Assembly (NCBI RefSeq): GCF_017348835.2
Contig: NZ_CP071375.1
Source of the DNA: Escherichia coli
GTDB lineage: Bacteria; Pseudomonadota; Gammaproteobacteria; Enterobacterales; Enterobacteriaceae
DNA: 64,000 nucleotides
Direction: 5' to 3' (one strand)
The notes under the pieces are model-generated. The model did not search any database. It worked only from the letters and a program-made list of their open reading frames with translations, and had not been told where the DNA came from. The stretch's first letter is position 1; the number at the start of each line of letters is the position of its first letter. Below, in pieces: positions 27,127-35,384 of the stretch. A program made the translations under genes and the position numbers.

Positions 27127-27951
27127 ATGACCGAATTTACAACTCTTCTTCAGCAAGGAAACGCCTGGTTCTTCATCCCCAGCGCCATCTTACTTGGTGC
27201 GCTTCATGGCCTGGAACCAGGGCACTCAAAAACGATGATGGCGGCGTTTATCATCGCCATCAAAGGCACCATTAAACAGGCGGTGATGCTCGGACTGGCA
27301 GCAACCATTTCGCATACCGCAGTGGTCTGGTTGATTGCCTTTGGCGGGATGGTGATCAGCAAGCGCTTTACTGCTCAATCAGCAGAACCGTGGCTCCAGT
27401 TGATTTCCGCAGTGATCATTATTGGCACCGCGTTCTGGATGTTCTGGCGTACCTGGCGCGGCGAACGCAACTGGCTGGAGAATATGCACGAGCATGATCA
27501 TGAGCATCATCACCACGATCACGAAGATCACCACGACCAAGGACATCATCACCATCACGAACATGGCGAGTATCAGGATGCCCATGCACGAGCCCATGCC
27601 AATGACATTAAACGACGCTTTGATGGTAGAGAGGTCACCAACTGGCAAATTTTGCTATTTGGCTTAACCGGTGGCCTTATCCCCTGCCCGGCAGCAATTA
27701 CCGTGCTGTTGATTTGCATTCAGTTGAAAGCCCTGACACTGGGCGCAACACTGGTCGTCAGTTTCAGCATTGGCCTGGCGTTAACGCTTGTCACCGTAGG
27801 CGTTGGCGCAGCAATCAGCGTTCAGCAGGTCGCAAAACGCTGGAGCGGATTTAACACTCTCGCTAAACGCGCCCCCTATTTTTCCAGTCTGTTGATTGGC
27901 TTAGTTGGTGTGTATATGGGCGTACATGGCTTCATGGGCATAATGCGATAA
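27127..27951 (+). CDS. rcnA: Ni/Co efflux protein RcnA (274 aa) with histidine-rich loop
   Basis: Membrane protein with central His/Asp/Glu-rich tract (HEHDHEHHHHDHEDHHDQGHHHHHEH). Confidence 0.92.
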   Translation: MTEFTTLLQQGNAWFFIPSAILLGALHGLEPGHSKTMMAAFIIAIKGTIKQAVMLGLAATISHTAVVWLIAFGGMVISKRFTAQSAEPWLQLISAVIIIGTAFWMFWRTWRGERNWLENMHEHDHEHHHHDHEDHHDQGHHHHHEHGEYQDAHARAHANDIKRRFDGREVTNWQILLFGLTGGLIPCPAAITVLLICIQLKALTLGATLVVSFSIGLALTLVTVGVGAAISVQQVAKRWSGFNTLAKRAPYFSSLLIGLVGVYMGVHGFMGIMR

Positions 27952-28589: not shown

Positions 28590-29624
28590 TTAGTCGTATT
28601 TCACGTTGATTAGTGCGGTTGCCTGTAGTGCGCCAGATTTAACTTTGTTTGTATCGTAGACGTAGTAACTGGCTGTTATCGGAATTGAAACCGTTGTATC
28701 TGTAAGTTTTGACTTTGCCGCAATTTCTTTTAAATTTGTGTATCCTTTACTGCTGTTAGTGATATTTAAAAGTGTGACTGGCGAACCATTACTTTCAAGA
28801 ATAAATCCTACGCCATTATCTTCCGCACCTTTCAGTATTGTGTTGCTGTTGGTTAACAAGTCAGAACTTGATAAATACACCTGCATTTTCCGTGATGTTT
28901 GATTTTGTTGACCTAATAAATTTTTACAACGCAGAATAATATCCTCTTTTTTACTATTTATTGTTGCTTTGTTACCTGTCGCTGGTAATTGTGAAACGGG
29001 AATACTGTCTAAAGTAATTAATAAATCGTCCGGTTTGCAGGTTGTGGTTATCGGGTTGTATGACAATGTCAGATTAAAGGAATAGACACCTGCATTTTGT
29101 GCCAATGCATTTCTGTAGCTATTTACACATGCATCCCATGACTTACCACCTAATAAACACAGTAGAAATTGTACTGCGGCACTCCCGCGTGTCGATGATG
29201 AAGCACTGGATAATGTCGCAACTCCATTAATCATCACTGAACCGCCGCCCCCCGCAGAAACATTCACTTTTGCATTACTAGCCGCAGGTGTCACCGTTAC
29301 CGAATAACCACTGGTGAAACTGGTCTGATTATTTGACAACGTGATGTTGTTTTTATTGGTCCATTCAAAATGTAAATTTAATTTAATGGTATCGTTATAA
29401 AGTCCAACAATAATATCCGACGGGCTCATAGGGGTGATAGTATTTGTACTCACGCATGACGAATCATTAAAATTATGCTCATAGGTCGCCATTTGTGTTT
29501 GAGTAAGTGCAAAATCCCCCTGAACAACCAAGTTGTGCTGAACAGATAACTCACTATAACATGCTGCATAGCTCACTGGCATAACCATCATCATTAATAT
29601 AAATAGCATTATGCGAATTTTCAT
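28590..29624 (-). CDS. yehA: Fimbrial adhesin-like protein YehA (344 aa)
   Basis: Signal peptide; Ser/Thr/Asn-rich fimbrial-type sequence; last gene of the yehDCBA chaperone-usher operon. Confidence 0.85.
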   Translation of the reverse strand: MKIRIMLFILMMMVMPVSYAACYSELSVQHNLVVQGDFALTQTQMATYEHNFNDSSCVSTNTITPMSPSDIIVGLYNDTIKLNLHFEWTNKNNITLSNNQTSFTSGYSVTVTPAASNAKVNVSAGGGGSVMINGVATLSSASSSTRGSAAVQFLLCLLGGKSWDACVNSYRNALAQNAGVYSFNLTLSYNPITTTCKPDDLLITLDSIPVSQLPATGNKATINSKKEDIILRCKNLLGQQNQTSRKMQVYLSSSDLLTNSNTILKGAEDNGVGFILESNGSPVTLLNITNSSKGYTNLKEIAAKSKLTDTTVSIPITASYYVYDTNKVKSGALQATALINVKYD

Positions 29625-29639
29625 AGAACCACCTGACTA

Positions 29640-32120
29640 TTACTGGCAAATATAATTTCTACTTTCATCAATCTCTTTACCGAAGATGATTGTGCATGAA
29701 AGTCCTTGTTGCTTATTAATTGCCACATTAACCGATGGCGGTACTTCATTGGTGCGAATAAATAACTGACTTCCCTGGCCGACAACGCCAATATTATGAC
29801 CGTGGATATCATTGACTTCATAACCAAACGTTAATGGTTGCCCATCCGCTCTTAACGCTTTTATAAACCAAGGCTTGCGCTGATCGGTATCAAAATTGAC
29901 CAGTACAACCGCGCCGCGATAAGGTGCGGCAATTTTCCGGTTACCGCGCAATTCTGCTTCGCTATCGCTTTGCGACACATCCAGCATCAGGTGATTTTCC
30001 CGATAAGGTGTCATTCCGTCGTATACCACCACTCCATTACGGTTTGTTGTGCGATATTTTTGCCCATTGACATAAGCATCTTTAATTCCTGGTGCATTCA
30101 TCACAGCAAACGTTTCGGAAAGACGGTTCGCCAGATTAACGCCACCCGACCAGGCGACAATGCCCCCTGAAACACTGGCTCCAGCCTGTCGATAAGTACT
30201 CGACTGACTATAACTGCCATTCACTGTTGCCACCGGCGCGTTCCAGGTTAAATTCGCTCCAGCTGTCGTTTCATTTCCCTGATGTTGATGACTCAGGTTG
30301 ACGCCATAATTGAACTGATCCCGACTCCCTACTGTTCCTGATAATCCCGTATTATTTGAGGCAAAACCCTGATCATCAAACGTCGTTGAGTTAGACATAT
30401 ATATTTGCCGACGAGGCGTCGTAACGTCATCACCCCAATCAAAGGGAATCGATATAAAAATATTAAAACGTTTCTCTTCATGATGATTCTCGTCATACGC
30501 CTGGCTTGCCGCGAGGGTATAGCTTATCCGTCGCAGGTTGTTGGAATAACTCAACTGATAATCCTTACTGCTGCCACTACGCCCCCAGTAATCTCGCCAT
30601 AACGTACTTAATGACACAGACCCCCAGCCTTCTGGCAATGACTGGCTCATATTGGCAGAAAAGCTATTTTTACGGCCAAAATCGTTCTGGTAATAATCGG
30701 CAATGTCATAGATATCGTTTTCATCACGGCGATAATTATCTTTATTGTTTGCCCAAACGTGATCGTTAAATGTCCGGTAATCACGCGACGAATAACGCCA
30801 GGCCGCCAGACCAAAACGCGTCGACCTTTGGCTCACAAATTTGTTGTAGGCAATTTGATAACTTTGCCCGTCAAACACATCGCCGTTGTCTTGTTTACTA
30901 TGCGACTTCGTGGCATCGACGGAAATTGCGCCAATGCGCGTGTTCCAACCTGTTCCGAGGGTAAACGCATAGTAATTATTAGCAACCATCGTGCCGCCAT
31001 ACAGCGTCAATAAGTTATTAAAACCATACTGATAACCTGCCTGGACAAAATCACTTTGCTTGCTCGCACCTTCAATATGACTACGGCCCGCTGCAAAATC
31101 ATATTTTGATACGCCAGGTTGCAACATATTAGGTACTGCCGCATAAGGCACCAGATAGGTGGTTACCGAACCGTCCGCCTCTTTCACGCTGACATCAAGA
31201 TCTGCTCCACCACCGGCCAACTGCAAATCTGTAATCGCAAACGGGCCAGGAGGAACCTCTTTCTGATAAACCACAAAACCGTTCTGTTCAATAGTTACCA
31301 GCGCGTTACTCTGAGCAATCCCCTGCACCCGTGGCGTAAAATTTTGTTTCGAGTTAGGCAACATCTGCATATCACGAAACAACCGCACACCGCTGAAGCG
31401 AACAGAATCAAAAATATCGCTTGATGTGTACATATCACCCACGCGAAGCGTGCCGAGAAGTTGGGCAAATCCACGTTCCAGATACAGGGTATTGCTTTTC
31501 CACGCCCCTGGATTGTTATTTGTTTTACTGAAACTGGCATCAGAATGCAGTTGCCACCCCAGTAAATTTAACCCGCTGTTAAAACGTACATATGTACTCT
31601 TACTATTACCCGACGCTTTATAGTCGCTGTAATACTGACTTACGTAATAAGACGTATAAAACGCATTGATTCCCCGCTCCCAGTTTTCTGGCGGAACGTA
31701 ACCATTTTCCAGCTCTTCAACCCAGGCTTGCGGAACAGCGAGATCCAAACGAAAAATCCCAATATCCCAGGAGTAGCTTCCGCCCTGAACAAGTTGCTCA
31801 AATGTTAAACACTGATTTTCGCATGCAAAATTATCGCTATTTATACCTAACCGCTTTACAATTTCACGCGTCAGGCAAGTTTCATGTGGGTTATCTTTGA
31901 CGATAATCTCATATTTTCCACGCCATTGTTTATTGACATAAATATCAATGTCGTACTGCCCAGGTAAAGGCTGATTATCATCAAGACGCAAATTTGTTAC
32001 TTGCTCACCTTTCATTCCTCCCATCATAAAATGGGTGTCAAAGGTTTCTTCTGCTGCATGTGCTTCAATGCCGAGCAATAACGCGACTATTGCTGATGCA
32101 AGCGGGGTCATTCTCAACAT
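29640..32120 (-). CDS. yehB: Outer-membrane fimbrial usher YehB
   Basis: About 826 aa from MLRMTPLASA; usher family beta-barrel sequence. Confidence 0.9.
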   Translation of the reverse strand: MLRMTPLASAIVALLLGIEAHAAEETFDTHFMMGGMKGEQVTNLRLDDNQPLPGQYDIDIYVNKQWRGKYEIIVKDNPHETCLTREIVKRLGINSDNFACENQCLTFEQLVQGGSYSWDIGIFRLDLAVPQAWVEELENGYVPPENWERGINAFYTSYYVSQYYSDYKASGNSKSTYVRFNSGLNLLGWQLHSDASFSKTNNNPGAWKSNTLYLERGFAQLLGTLRVGDMYTSSDIFDSVRFSGVRLFRDMQMLPNSKQNFTPRVQGIAQSNALVTIEQNGFVVYQKEVPPGPFAITDLQLAGGGADLDVSVKEADGSVTTYLVPYAAVPNMLQPGVSKYDFAAGRSHIEGASKQSDFVQAGYQYGFNNLLTLYGGTMVANNYYAFTLGTGWNTRIGAISVDATKSHSKQDNGDVFDGQSYQIAYNKFVSQRSTRFGLAAWRYSSRDYRTFNDHVWANNKDNYRRDENDIYDIADYYQNDFGRKNSFSANMSQSLPEGWGSVSLSTLWRDYWGRSGSSKDYQLSYSNNLRRISYTLAASQAYDENHHEEKRFNIFISIPFDWGDDVTTPRRQIYMSNSTTFDDQGFASNNTGLSGTVGSRDQFNYGVNLSHQHQGNETTAGANLTWNAPVATVNGSYSQSSTYRQAGASVSGGIVAWSGGVNLANRLSETFAVMNAPGIKDAYVNGQKYRTTNRNGVVVYDGMTPYRENHLMLDVSQSDSEAELRGNRKIAAPYRGAVVLVNFDTDQRKPWFIKALRADGQPLTFGYEVNDIHGHNIGVVGQGSQLFIRTNEVPPSVNVAINKQQGLSCTIIFGKEIDESRNYICQ

Positions 32121-32135: not shown

Positions 32136-32810
32136 TTAAATTTTGTCACTAATATAGTTGCCGTGATCATCGATAATGGTCAGTTGCCAGCCATTCGCAT
32201 TATTATTTTTTACACTAACATTCTGACTTTCTTGTGGTGCAATCATGATTGTTTCATAATTCACTTTGACGTTATTAGCCTTAACATCAGAAATCGTTAC
32301 CCAATTTGGCGAGTCATTTTTTATGACTACGTTATTACCGCTACGACTCACTCGTAATTTTTTAAAAGTCGTTTTATTTACCGGAGCAATACCAGCAGGA
32401 CGGTAAAACAACTTGATTCTGTTTTGCATGGCAAATTTTAACGCATTCTTTCCTTCATCTTCTGGGCTATTCGGTGGAATATCCAGAACATTAAGATAAA
32501 AAATACTTTCCTTATTACTGGGTAATTTATTAGGCATGATTTTAATTTTTATTTGTTGCCCAGAATTGGCCGCTACTTTCACTACTGGTGGCGTTAACAT
32601 GAAAGGAACCTGAATCTTTTCTGGCGGCAGAGACGTGTCGCCATCATCAATCCACGCCTGCATCAGCGAAGAGCGGTTTCCCTGATTCATCAGTTGTACC
32701 ATGACCTCTTTCTGCTCTGCCGGGTAAATGATACGGGTCCCGAAAATAACCATTCCGGCATGCACGGGGAATATCATAGAAGAGATGAGTAAAGATAATA
32801 ACCCTTTCAT
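32136..32810 (-). CDS. yehC: Periplasmic fimbrial chaperone YehC
   Basis: PapD-like chaperone; start assigned to MKGLLSLL with signal peptide. Confidence 0.88.
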   Translation of the reverse strand: MKGLLSLLISSMIFPVHAGMVIFGTRIIYPAEQKEVMVQLMNQGNRSSLMQAWIDDGDTSLPPEKIQVPFMLTPPVVKVAANSGQQIKIKIMPNKLPSNKESIFYLNVLDIPPNSPEDEGKNALKFAMQNRIKLFYRPAGIAPVNKTTFKKLRVSRSGNNVVIKNDSPNWVTISDVKANNVKVNYETIMIAPQESQNVSVKNNNANGWQLTIIDDHGNYISDKI

Positions 32811-32897
32811 CTTAATGCCTCTTATATTTATGCTGGCCGCCATGAATATGGCGGCCATTTTAACTTACTGAAAAAACAAGATGATTATTTTAAATAT

Positions 32898-33440
32898 TTA
32901 ATCCTGGGCAACACGCATAACCAATGAAGAGTTAACAGTACCAGATGCAACACCACTGTCAGTCAACTTCAGATATTTTGCCTTAAACGGTATTGCATAT
33001 TGTCCATCAGCAGTTTTATAACTTTCAATATTAAATGGTGCGGAAATATCCAGTACGTCACTGCTATCTCCCAAATAGAGATAGTATCCAACTGTGTCAT
33101 TACTACTGGATATTGCCTTATCATTACCAAGAATTTTCTCGTTGGTGATCAACGAAAGTTTTACGCCATCAATAGTCTTCGGACAAGTAATTTTCAGCAT
33201 ACTGCTGGTTACACCAACCGCGCCATCATAAGTTGAATATTTCGCTTTACCATCAAATACAGTGGTGGGTACAGTCGGCATATTAATACTGACTGAATCA
33301 CCGCCAGCGACAAATGTACATGGTGATTCAGCAATATTACCTTTAATGGTTAAAGTTCCGGTATCTACTTCAGCAGCGAAAATACCAGCACTCATAAATA
33401 CAGAAGATAAGACAGCGACAGCAATAATTGAATGTTTCAT
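32898..33440 (-). CDS. yehD: Fimbrial major subunit-like protein YehD (180 aa)
   Basis: Signal peptide and fimbrial subunit C-terminal beta-strand motif. Confidence 0.88.
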   Translation of the reverse strand: MKHSIIAVAVLSSVFMSAGIFAAEVDTGTLTIKGNIAESPCTFVAGGDSVSINMPTVPTTVFDGKAKYSTYDGAVGVTSSMLKITCPKTIDGVKLSLITNEKILGNDKAISSSNDTVGYYLYLGDSSDVLDISAPFNIESYKTADGQYAIPFKAKYLKLTDSGVASGTVNSSLVMRVAQD

Positions 33441-33669
33441 GATGCATTCCTTAATAAGTTTATTTTGTTTTGTTAAGAGTCTGTATCTCTTGGAAACAAA
33501 TTTCTCACATCAAAAAGGTTGCCGCAATGTAAACATATTGTTTTGTTGATTTAAAACAAATTAACTAATGCGATATAAATACAACAAATGATTCGCTATA
33601 ACAAACATTTTTGAAACTGATTAATTACCGTAAATTACCGTAAATAACATTTATGGGATGAATAAAAAA

Positions 33670-33704
33670 GCCAAAATCATTCATAGGAATGATTTTGGCT
33701 TTTT
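33670..33704 (-). terminator. Hairpin (12-bp stem GCCAAAATCATT/AATGATTTTGGC) flanked by A/T runs, terminator downstream of yehE
   Basis: Perfect inverted repeat with T-run on both strands. Confidence 0.6.
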
Positions 33705-33731
33705 AAATATGCTTAAAACGGTGTTGGCAAA

Positions 33732-34013
33732 TTAATCGTAGCGATTTAACACGATTTTGCGTTTGTCGTTATTACCCACAGCTACCACTTCTGTCGTAAC
33801 GCCTTTTGCAGTAGAAGAAGCACGATAGTTGGTTTCAACTCGTTGTAACAACTGCCCACAACGTTGCTGAAGATGATTATTAACAACATCCATACTGCAT
33901 GTAGGGGAACTAATTCTGCCATTGATGGTTAATGTTGCAGTATCAGAAGAGAACGCGGGTGATGCTAGTCCATAAGCAAGAAAAACAGCTCCTGACAGCC
34001 AATACTTATTCAT
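33732..34013 (-). CDS. yehE: Uncharacterized secreted protein YehE (93 aa)
   Basis: 93-aa ORF with signal peptide; synteny upstream of yehD. Confidence 0.8.
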   Translation of the reverse strand: MNKYWLSGAVFLAYGLASPAFSSDTATLTINGRISSPTCSMDVVNNHLQQRCGQLLQRVETNYRASSTAKGVTTEVVAVGNNDKRKIVLNRYD

Positions 34014-34274
34014 TGAACGTTATCCCTGTAGTAAAGGTTATGCCTGGATAGAATGAGTGCATAACAAACTATAGCTGTACATCCACTACACAGCACGAAG
34101 GATGATAATGAAGCATTGCCTGTACGATCAATCGACTTTGTAGAGTTTCGGACGAAGGTCCGCAGAATATTCGCAGTATTAAATAAGTGTTCATTAATGC
34201 GGCAAAAACAAATACACCGCATCAATGTAACATCTCTGCGGTGTATGAAGAATAACCAGAATGGTTAATAGGCG

Positions 34275-35384
34275 TTAGACCGCGCGGAAGGAAATCTCGC
34301 CTGGAATGACTTCACCCTGCCAGTAGAGCTGAGCTGCAACGCGGTCAGCCAGCTGGCGGTAGATAGCGGTAAATTCGCTCTCCGGACGGCTGATAACCGT
34401 TGGCGTGCCTTTATCGAGATCCTCACGTAAGGAGATGTGTAACGGCATCTGCCCCAGCAGCTGTGTATGGTATTTTTCAGCCAGTTTCTCTGCACCACCG
34501 GTACCGAAAATCGGTTCATGGTGACCACAGTTACTGCAAATATGCACACTCATGTTCTCGACAATACCGAGCACCGGAACCTCGACTTTCTCGAACATCA
34601 CAATGCCTTTTTTCGCATCGATCAACGCGATGTCCTGCGGGGTGGTGACCACAACTGCACCAGTTACTGGAATGTTTTGCGCCAGCGTCAATTGAATGTC
34701 ACCGGTGCCTGGCGGCATATCAAGCACCAGATAGTCGAGATCCGGCCACAAGGTTTCCTGCAACATCTGCATTAACGCCTTGCTCGCCATCGGTCCACGC
34801 CACACCATCGCATTGTCGTCAGTGACCAGATAACCAATTGAATTGGTTGCCAGGCCATGAGACATAATCGGTGCCATATGGGTACCGTCCGGCGAAGTTG
34901 GACGCTGATTTTCTGCGCCCAGCATGGTGGGAATTGATGGACCGTAGATATCGGCGTCCAGAATGCCGACTTTCGCCCCTTCCGCCGCCAGTGCCAGCGC
35001 CAGGTTTACCGCCGTGGAGGATTTACCCACGCCGCCTTTACCGGAACTGACCGCAATGATGTTCTTCACGCCATTAATACCCGGCTGATTCTTCACGCGT
35101 TTTAAGGTGGCGATATTGTGCGACAGTTTCCAGTCGATAGCTTTCGCCCCGGTGATACGCAGCAGTTCGGCGCTACATTGCTCTTTTAACTCTTCAAACG
35201 CGCTATGCCAGACGAATGGCATAACCAGTTCCACATGCAACGTGTCGTCCATCCAGGCGACATGGTGCAACGCTTTCAGCGTGGTGAGGTTATGCTTCAG
35301 GGTTGGGTGCTGAAAATTGGCCAGTGTCCCGGCGACCATTGCGCGCAAGGCTTCTGGTGATTTGGCCTGGGATTGTTCGTTCAT
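34275..35384 (-). CDS. apbC: Fe-S cluster carrier ATPase ApbC/Mrp (369 aa)
   Basis: P-loop GKGGVGKS; start assigned to MNEQSQAK with GGAG RBS. Confidence 0.92.
   Translation of the reverse strand: MNEQSQAKSPEALRAMVAGTLANFQHPTLKHNLTTLKALHHVAWMDDTLHVELVMPFVWHSAFEELKEQCSAELLRITGAKAIDWKLSHNIATLKRVKNQPGINGVKNIIAVSSGKGGVGKSSTAVNLALALAAEGAKVGILDADIYGPSIPTMLGAENQRPTSPDGTHMAPIMSHGLATNSIGYLVTDDNAMVWRGPMASKALMQMLQETLWPDLDYLVLDMPPGTGDIQLTLAQNIPVTGAVVVTTPQDIALIDAKKGIVMFEKVEVPVLGIVENMSVHICSNCGHHEPIFGTGGAEKLAEKYHTQLLGQMPLHISLREDLDKGTPTVISRPESEFTAIYRQLADRVAAQLYWQGEVIPGEISFRAV

Follow-up and report, generated by a model that had tools for sequence, protein, structure and literature searches.

An exact tandem duplication of a 10-mer in the spacer between yehE and the fimbrial operon yehDCBA creates, within the 64,000-nucleotide stretch of Escherichia coli DNA analysed here (the window), the only perfect match to the spaced consensus operator GTAAA-N5-GTAAA of the response regulator CpxR. 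The periodicity of the repeat is the trace of a duplication and not of chance. It is plausible, though the proposal should be regarded as tentative, that the two copies constitute a functional CpxR operator born by slippage upstream of yehDCBA; this is the sole specific model that fits the sequence perfectly, and its experimental support is indirect. Within the spacer, the candidate box follows the yehE terminator and precedes the promoter core of yehD, approximately 184-210 bp from the yehD ATG.

An exact search finds the 22-mer ATTACCGTAAATTACCGTAAAT once in the 64-kb window, at 33624-33645 on the + strand, and Tandem Repeats Finder delimits the array at 33623-33645 with a period of 10, 2.3 copies and 100% matches; read in the direction of transcription (minus strand), the array is TTTACGGTAA TTTACGGTAA. 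The tandem 10-mer reported in the initial annotation is therefore real and exact, but the interval given for it there (33615-33636) lies 9 bases too far left and takes in just the first 13 repeat bases. The surroundings were described accurately as an AT-rich yehE-yehD spacer with the repeat about 200 bp from the yehD start: the spacer (33441-33731) measures 291 bp, with a GC content of 27.5% vs. 50.4% for the window, and the repeat is located 184-205 bp upstream of the ATG at 33440. The 22-mer was absent from all 100 shuffles of the window, even when two mismatches were allowed, and among the five tandem arrays of comparable score that Tandem Repeats Finder reports in the 64 kb, only the yeh repeat is 100% exact. 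Given this exact periodicity over 23 bases, the origin of the repeat must be sought in duplication or slippage and not in random sequence. The coordinates of the repeat and of its surroundings are collected in Table 1.

Table 1. The tandem repeat, the elements of the yehE-yehD spacer and the neighbouring genes (positions are those of the window)
Feature	Position	Strand	Description
Exact tandem repeat	33624-33645	-	+ strand, ATTACCGTAA x2 followed by AT; yehD sense, ATTTACGGTAATTTACGGTAAT
Candidate perfect CpxR-type box	33630-33644	-	GTAAA-TTACC-GTAAA on +; TTTAC-GGTAA-TTTAC toward yehD
yehE	33732-34013	-	Upstream gene, DUF2574 (Pfam) and RefSeq annotation of matching genomes; stop codon at 33732
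yehE intrinsic terminator	33664-33704	-	GC-closed stem 33670-33699, A/U extension 33665-33704, U-tract 33664-33669
Fast-evolving distal spacer, holding the repeat	33591-33663	-	47-77% column identity to other Escherichia alleles
Conserved yehD core (promoter-proximal region and 5'UTR)	33471-33590	-	84-100% identity among Escherichia alleles
FNR-like box TTGTT-TTAA-ATCAA	33546-33559	-	9/10 to TTGAT-N4-ATCAA, within the conserved core
Promoter-like match TTTAAA-N18-TACATT	33526-33555	-	8/12, relaxed scan; weak prediction
yehD	32898-33440	-	Major fimbrial subunit, first gene of yehDCBA; Pfam Fimbrial and RefSeq annotation of matching genomes
yehC	32136-32810	-	Reading frame uninterrupted in the window
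yehB	29640-32120	-	Reading frame uninterrupted in the window
yehA	28590-29624	-	Reading frame uninterrupted in the window

The spacer is divided into parts that evolve very differently. At its yehE end lies a genuine intrinsic terminator, whose fold has a dG of -22.4 kcal/mol (z = -8.0), equalled by none of 200 shuffles, and in which 7 of 18 pairs stay paired despite changes on both sides among nine alleles/species (covarying variants GCCAAAAT/ATTTTGGC, GCCGAAAT/ATTTCGGC, GCTTAAAT/ATTTAAGC and GCTGAAAT/ATTTCAGC); a consensus terminator scan did not detect it. This terminator forms the upstream boundary of the yehD regulatory region, and the repeat, located 18 bp beyond it, is outside any yehE transcript. 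By column identity among Escherichia alleles, the stretch holding the repeat is the least conserved part of the spacer, and approximately 33 bp of variable sequence separate the repeat from the conserved core, blocks of which are still recognisable in Superficieibacter. The promoter-proximal region and 5'UTR (e.g., GTGAGAAATTTGTTTCCAAGAGATACAGACTCTTAACA) are nearly invariant in alleles that are otherwise 20-30% diverged. Such conservation implies a strong constraint beyond the FNR-like box, which itself is consistent with the published binding of FNR to yehD in vivo in K-12 (PMC2690998). Membership of K-12 yehD in the ArcA and NarL iModulons (PMC7657598 Data Set S1) points to anaerobic control of the gene. 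A second FNR/CRP-like half-palindrome, TTGAAACTGATTAA (33611-33624, 8/10 to the FNR consensus), adjoins the promoter-proximal end of the repeat. A strict scan found no promoter anywhere in the yehE-yehD spacer, and the relaxed scan yielded a sole promoter-like match in the conserved core. If this weak predicted promoter is used, transcription would start at approximately 33519 and the centre of the box and repeat would lie near -118, which would be far for simple repression.

Other structural explanations and origins of the repeat were considered and set aside. In a search of Rfam covariance models over 33300-34300, every match was far below the gathering score and driven by the terminator hairpin, and a known structured RNA was accordingly rejected; a hairpin or cruciform formed by the TTAC/GTAA palindromes was dismissed by inspection, as the stems would have just 4 bp. 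Because ISApl1 and IS1 insert in the spacer, the repeat was also considered as a footprint of IS excision. However, a clean tandem duplication of the target is rarely left behind when a bacterial IS is lost, and the recurrent +10/-10 changes described below fit slippage better. As an IS target, the spacer carries ISApl1 in LP5-1 (inserted in the region homologous to window positions ~33550-33660) and IS1 in FDAARGOS_943, approximately 17 bp from the repeat, where it displaces the terminator side. UMNF18-type alleles contain a second small tandem duplication, ATGCTTA x2, in the stretch that separates the terminator from the stop codon of yehE; this heptamer is single-copy in the window (33709-33715).

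CpxR is a response regulator of the OmpR/PhoB family whose phosphorylated form binds as a head-to-tail dimer. When the CpxR, H-NS, OmpR and FNR consensus motifs were scored ungapped across the spacer, the box GTAAATTACCGTAAA at 33630-33644 reached 10/10 to the CpxR consensus, which in E. coli is GTAAA(N)4-8GTAAA (PMC9603713), and its half-sites are 10 bp apart, i.e., one helical turn. The exact form GTAAA-N5-GTAAA occurs once in the 64 kb, at the yeh repeat, vs. 0.07 occurrences expected, and versions with one mismatch are present in the window at the chance rate (4 observed vs. 3.9 expected). The intergenic region between cpxR and cpxP of K-12 likewise contains exactly one perfect box, TTTAC-GTTGT-TTTAC toward cpxP, and the yeh box has the same orientation to yehD as that box has to cpxP. 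The suggestion that the tandem repeat is a candidate binding site thus survives as a hypothesis, and the consensus match allows it to be worded more specifically, as a putative CpxR site that faces yehD as the known box faces cpxP.

It is reasonable to propose the following course of events. In the weakly constrained stretch that separates the yehE terminator from the yehD core, replication slippage would create and maintain the 10-bp duplication. Because the unit is 10 bp long and contains GTAAA, two copies bring identical pentamers onto one face of the DNA at a distance of one helical turn. The resulting GTAAA-N5-GTAAA has the exact consensus form and, facing yehD as at cpxP, could serve as an operator to which phosphorylated CpxR binds as a head-to-tail dimer. 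When the Cpx envelope-stress response is active, phosphorylated CpxR would bind the repeat, at approximately -118 from the predicted promoter, and this binding would lower yehDCBA transcription. The Cpx system tends to lower pili production under periplasmic stress, and the repression reading is in line with this tendency as well as with the K-12 data presented below. A single copy would leave a single half-site, with a predicted loss of dimer binding, and three copies would provide three in-phase half-sites; any change by one 10-bp unit would keep the helical phase of everything upstream. An extension of this model, in which one, two or three half-sites make up a naturally tunable CpxR operator that sets the shut-down of Yeh under envelope stress, with the variants selected for the niche, appears improbable. 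If it nonetheless held, the variants recurring in cattle-associated O157:H7 and related lineages would have been selected for host or niche adaptation, and the repeat, which sits on a yeh haplotype exchanged with a cryptic clade of Escherichia, would represent the enteric equivalent of the heptads at ctxAB.

Published data on K-12 link yehD to Cpx. In RNA-seq from a study of two-component systems, MG1655 exposed to 5% ethanol shows yehD raised by 3.43 log2 (approximately 10-fold; padj 5.6e-6) in the cpxR knockout vs. the wild type (PMC7657598 Data Set S3). In the part of the same data set that covers baeR, no yehD entry was found, and the effect of cpxR therefore does not resemble a general knockout or ethanol artefact. 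On the other hand, yehD is also differentially expressed in the kdpE and zraR knockouts of K-12 (PMC7657598), which suggests a noisy, poorly expressed gene. The authors of that study class yehD as an indirect CpxR target, and their K-12 CpxR ChIP-exo lists no peak at yeh (PMC7657598 Data Set S2); it should be noted that the K-12 box is imperfect and that the same ChIP-exo also missed 52 published regulon genes. The type 1 fimbrial gene fimA, which like yehD belongs to a chaperone-usher operon and shows higher expression when cpxR is knocked out under that stress, differs from K-12 yehD in having CpxR ChIP-exo peaks, 227-260 bp upstream of its start codon (PMC7657598). By analogy, fimA may be taken as a precedent for repression of a chaperone-usher operon by CpxR from a comparable distance. 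The literature found on yeh and CpxR mentions neither the repeat nor a CpxR site at yehD.

The repeat travels on a recombined haplotype. Of 5426 complete E. coli genomes, 369, the majority of them O157:H7, carry the repeat-bearing yeh haplotype, as detected with a probe limited to the divergent part of the spacer. Over 12 kb, the window is matched at 100% by the pig isolates PE164 and F2_81, and most other E. coli genomes, K-12 included, are approximately 80-83% identical across the spacer. The block comprising yehC, yehD, the spacer and yehE (32136-34013) is 98.6-100% identical to Escherichia sp. E1V33, which belongs to a cryptic clade, and 67-89% identical to K-12, whereas the adjacent yehE-apbC spacer and apbC (34014-35200) are 97-99% identical to K-12 and 85-90% identical to E1V33. 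This flip of identity directly beyond the 5' end of yehE marks a recombination breakpoint, and the yeh haplotype has thus been exchanged by recombination.

Comparison of the alleles indicates that the half-sites are patchily conserved in Escherichia. In yehD sense, the window, O157 and E1V33 share TTTACGGTAA TTTACGGTAA, E. albertii has TTTACAACAA TTTACGGTAA, K-12 has TTTACATAAA TCTACATTAA (GTAGA-N5-GTAAA on the + strand, of the same length as the repeat), and JCM5491 and S5 have TTTATAGAAA TCCACATTAA; the E. whittamii allele holds one copy. No indels separate the aligned alleles at the columns homologous to the repeat. Both pentamers are present in E1V33 and in E. albertii, where they are kept (TTTAC-AACAA-TTTAC) with three of the five intervening bases changed, and most E. 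coli alleles carry one good and one degraded half-site; the degraded forms at the same columns are TTTAC/TCTAC in K-12 and TTTAT/TCCAC in JCM5491 and S5. The exact repeat is thus a homogenised version of a 10-bp periodicity that is older and degenerate.

Copy number was surveyed with 41-mer junction queries whose longest match in a two-copy genome does not exceed a 27-mer, too short for megablast to seed on, and the variant sequences were checked directly. Exactly two copies are present in 97% of the 369 carriers, three copies in nine and one copy in a single genome, that of the clinical O157 isolate ATCC 43889; the E. whittamii repeat is likewise single-copy. Counted conservatively from the flanking haplotypes and from an SNP matrix that covers 40 kb in eight O157 genomes, the events include at least four expansions and no fewer than two contractions, one in ATCC 43889 and one in E. 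whittamii. The expansions comprise the TB21-1/HB6/UTME-1 sublineage, perhaps common with the Swiss 33F4 clone; RIMD 0509939, on a two-copy Sakai/EDL933 background; 17MR471, with a UMNF18-type flank; and FDAARGOS_943, with an AHM8C160RI-type flank. The O157:H7 genomes TB21-1, HB6 and UTME-1 have three copies together with six linked markers in common, and the presence of three copies in three independent assemblies from one farm argues against an assembly error. The copy-number state is stably inherited within O157 lineages, and its changes are ordinary slippage and not phase variation. The comparison of copy number across strains proposed in the initial annotation therefore reveals a number that is not invariant, with 10 of 369 genomes differing from two copies, and of the slipped-strand, phase-variable element envisaged there, the mutational process is borne out (one, two or three copies) and the phase-variable locus is not. 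Elsewhere in the window, the histidine-rich coding repeat of rcnA (27508-27564; period 6/9/18) occurs in at least four lengths in the eight O157:H7 genomes compared, a variability far above that of the yeh 10-mer.

Several other readings of the repeat have to be weighed against a CpxR operator. It could well be a neutral slippage product without a regulatory role, its match to the CpxR consensus being coincidental, and this possibility must be taken seriously. No part of the spacer is less conserved than the one that holds the repeat, and the ATGCTTA duplication and IS insertions found in the same spacer suggest relaxed constraint; one-, two- and three-copy states all persist in natural isolates; the pentamers are degraded in most E. 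coli alleles; and no CpxR peak was called at the homologous K-12 site by ChIP-exo (PMC7657598). Moreover, any 10-bp duplication with GTAAA in its unit automatically yields a perfect box, so that coincidence is not negligible: the share of positions at which simulated random 10-bp duplications produce one is 4.3% in AT-rich sequence and 2% overall. Nonetheless, a probability of approximately 2-4% is just a few percent, and neutrality does not readily account for the orientation shared with cpxP, for E. albertii, in which both pentamers are kept while the bases between them diverge, for the Cpx dependence of yehD in K-12 or for the regulation of another chaperone-usher operon, fimA, by CpxR from a similar distance. 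The CpxR reading, for its part, is limited by the site of the box in fast-evolving DNA and by the persistence of one- and three-copy variants. Two copies are not essential, since one-copy variants persist in ATCC 43889 and E. whittamii.

Assigning the repeat to a regulator other than CpxR, i.e., to OmpR, another member of the OmpR/PhoB family or a dimeric reader of the TTAC-C-GTAA palindrome, is unlikely. A 10-bp direct-repeat geometry is common to OmpR sites GTTACATTTTGTTACAT (PMC5438342), TTAC is present in each unit, a 9-bp palindrome TTACCGTAA can be seen directly within each unit, and yehD expression shifts in several response-regulator knockouts (PMC7657598). However, the repeat scores below 11/17 to the OmpR 17-mer GTTACATTTTGTTACAT, for which reason an OmpR box was rejected; the main text of the K-12 OmpR ChIP-exo paper makes no mention of yeh (PMC5438342); no documented E. 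coli regulator was found that recognises TTACNGTAA; and the CpxR consensus fits perfectly without extra assumptions. Very unlikely is an H-NS silencing architecture in which the two copies would act as high-affinity nucleation sites. H-NS represses the operon, which is part of a static protein-occupancy domain, the spacer has a GC content of 27.5%, and the unit CGTAAATT resembles the high-affinity motif tCGATAAATT, with its central T-A step (PMC2094087), minus one base, but ungapped scoring finds no match of at least 8/10 to this motif in the spacer, vs. 1.4 per kb across the window, and the repeat carries the most GC-rich pentanucleotides (ACCGT) of the local stretch; a nucleation site at the repeat was rejected on the failed ungapped scoring. 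The chance that the repeat is a slipped-strand switch that toggles yehD within a population is smaller still. Copy number does vary (nine three-copy genomes and one one-copy genome among 369, in addition to the one-copy E. whittamii), and the changes recur on several backgrounds. Nevertheless, the tract is short, at 2.3 copies of a 10-mer; merely 10 of 369 genomes deviate from two copies, and the O157:H7 state is stably inherited; the tract is not in the promoter spacer or in any ORF and lies approximately 115-120 bp upstream of the sole promoter-like match; and a 10-bp unit keeps the helical phase. A synthetic four-copy query surfaced no four-copy genome, in a search in which overlapping BLAST pieces tied genomes at 100%. 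Rare variants, stable inheritance, a short tract, its position and the kept helical phase together rule out a classical phase-variation switch. Taken jointly, an H-NS role and phase variation retain only a slim chance of explaining the repeat.

Set beside known systems, the putative CpxR operator at yehD shares with the K-12 cpxP promoter a single perfect GTAAA-N5-GTAAA box, read as TTTAC-N5-TTTAC toward the gene, with 10-bp spacing at an envelope-related promoter. The cpxP box is located 80-94 bp upstream of the ATG and activates, whereas the yeh box is a candidate by sequence, lies approximately 184-210 bp upstream in non-conserved DNA and, as the K-12 data suggest, would repress; at yeh, furthermore, the whole 10-mer is repeated and not the pentamers alone. 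The TTTTGAT heptads upstream of ctxAB in Vibrio cholerae are likewise a tandem repeat upstream of a virulence-associated promoter with a strain-variable copy number, and one report describes them as regulator binding sites whose copy number affects promoter activity (bioRxiv 10.1101/2021.05.14.444153). The heptads differ from the yeh repeat in having 7-bp units, more copies and a demonstrated function, being bound by ToxR, ToxT and H-NS, whereas the yeh repeat has a 10-bp unit, one to three copies and a putative function. Slipped-strand contingency loci also have tandem repeats whose copy number is altered by slippage, but their long tracts, high switching rates and length-toggled expression have no counterpart at yeh.

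Transcriptional control of yehD has barely been mapped so far. Were the repeat a CpxR operator, the O157-type fimbrial operon would be tied directly to the envelope-stress response, and the Cpx dependence of yehD in the K-12 data would be explained. The one-, two- and three-copy alleles would then offer a natural allelic series in which to study the effect of half-site number on the tuning of a response-regulator operator. If functional, it would add another CpxR operator at a fimbrial promoter, with a natural copy series loosely comparable to the ctxAB heptads. If neutral, it would illustrate cleanly how a short tandem duplication is born and drifts in intergenic DNA, and would warn that duplication by itself can automatically generate a perfect consensus site.

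The literature on H-NS, SlyA and FNR agrees with the view of such an operon as cryptic and under the control of nucleoid proteins, though EHEC expresses it natively. In K-12, yehDCBA is silenced by H-NS, and overproduction of SlyA raises its transcript 3.6-fold (PMC5797941); the operon is within a static protein-occupancy domain (PMC12266141). In EHEC 86-24, the yeh operon is one transcript, expressed from its native promoter, induced by ethanolamine with AdoCbl and positively regulated by CsrA, which is reported to bind the yehD 5'UTR near the start codon, and Yeh fimbriae affect LEE expression and virulence in EHEC (PMC11287998). The operon is intact in the window. The usher gene yehB, intact in the window, Sakai, EDL933, TB21-1 and others, is an annotated pseudogene with an internal stop in O157:H7 Z866, and operon integrity therefore varies within O157.
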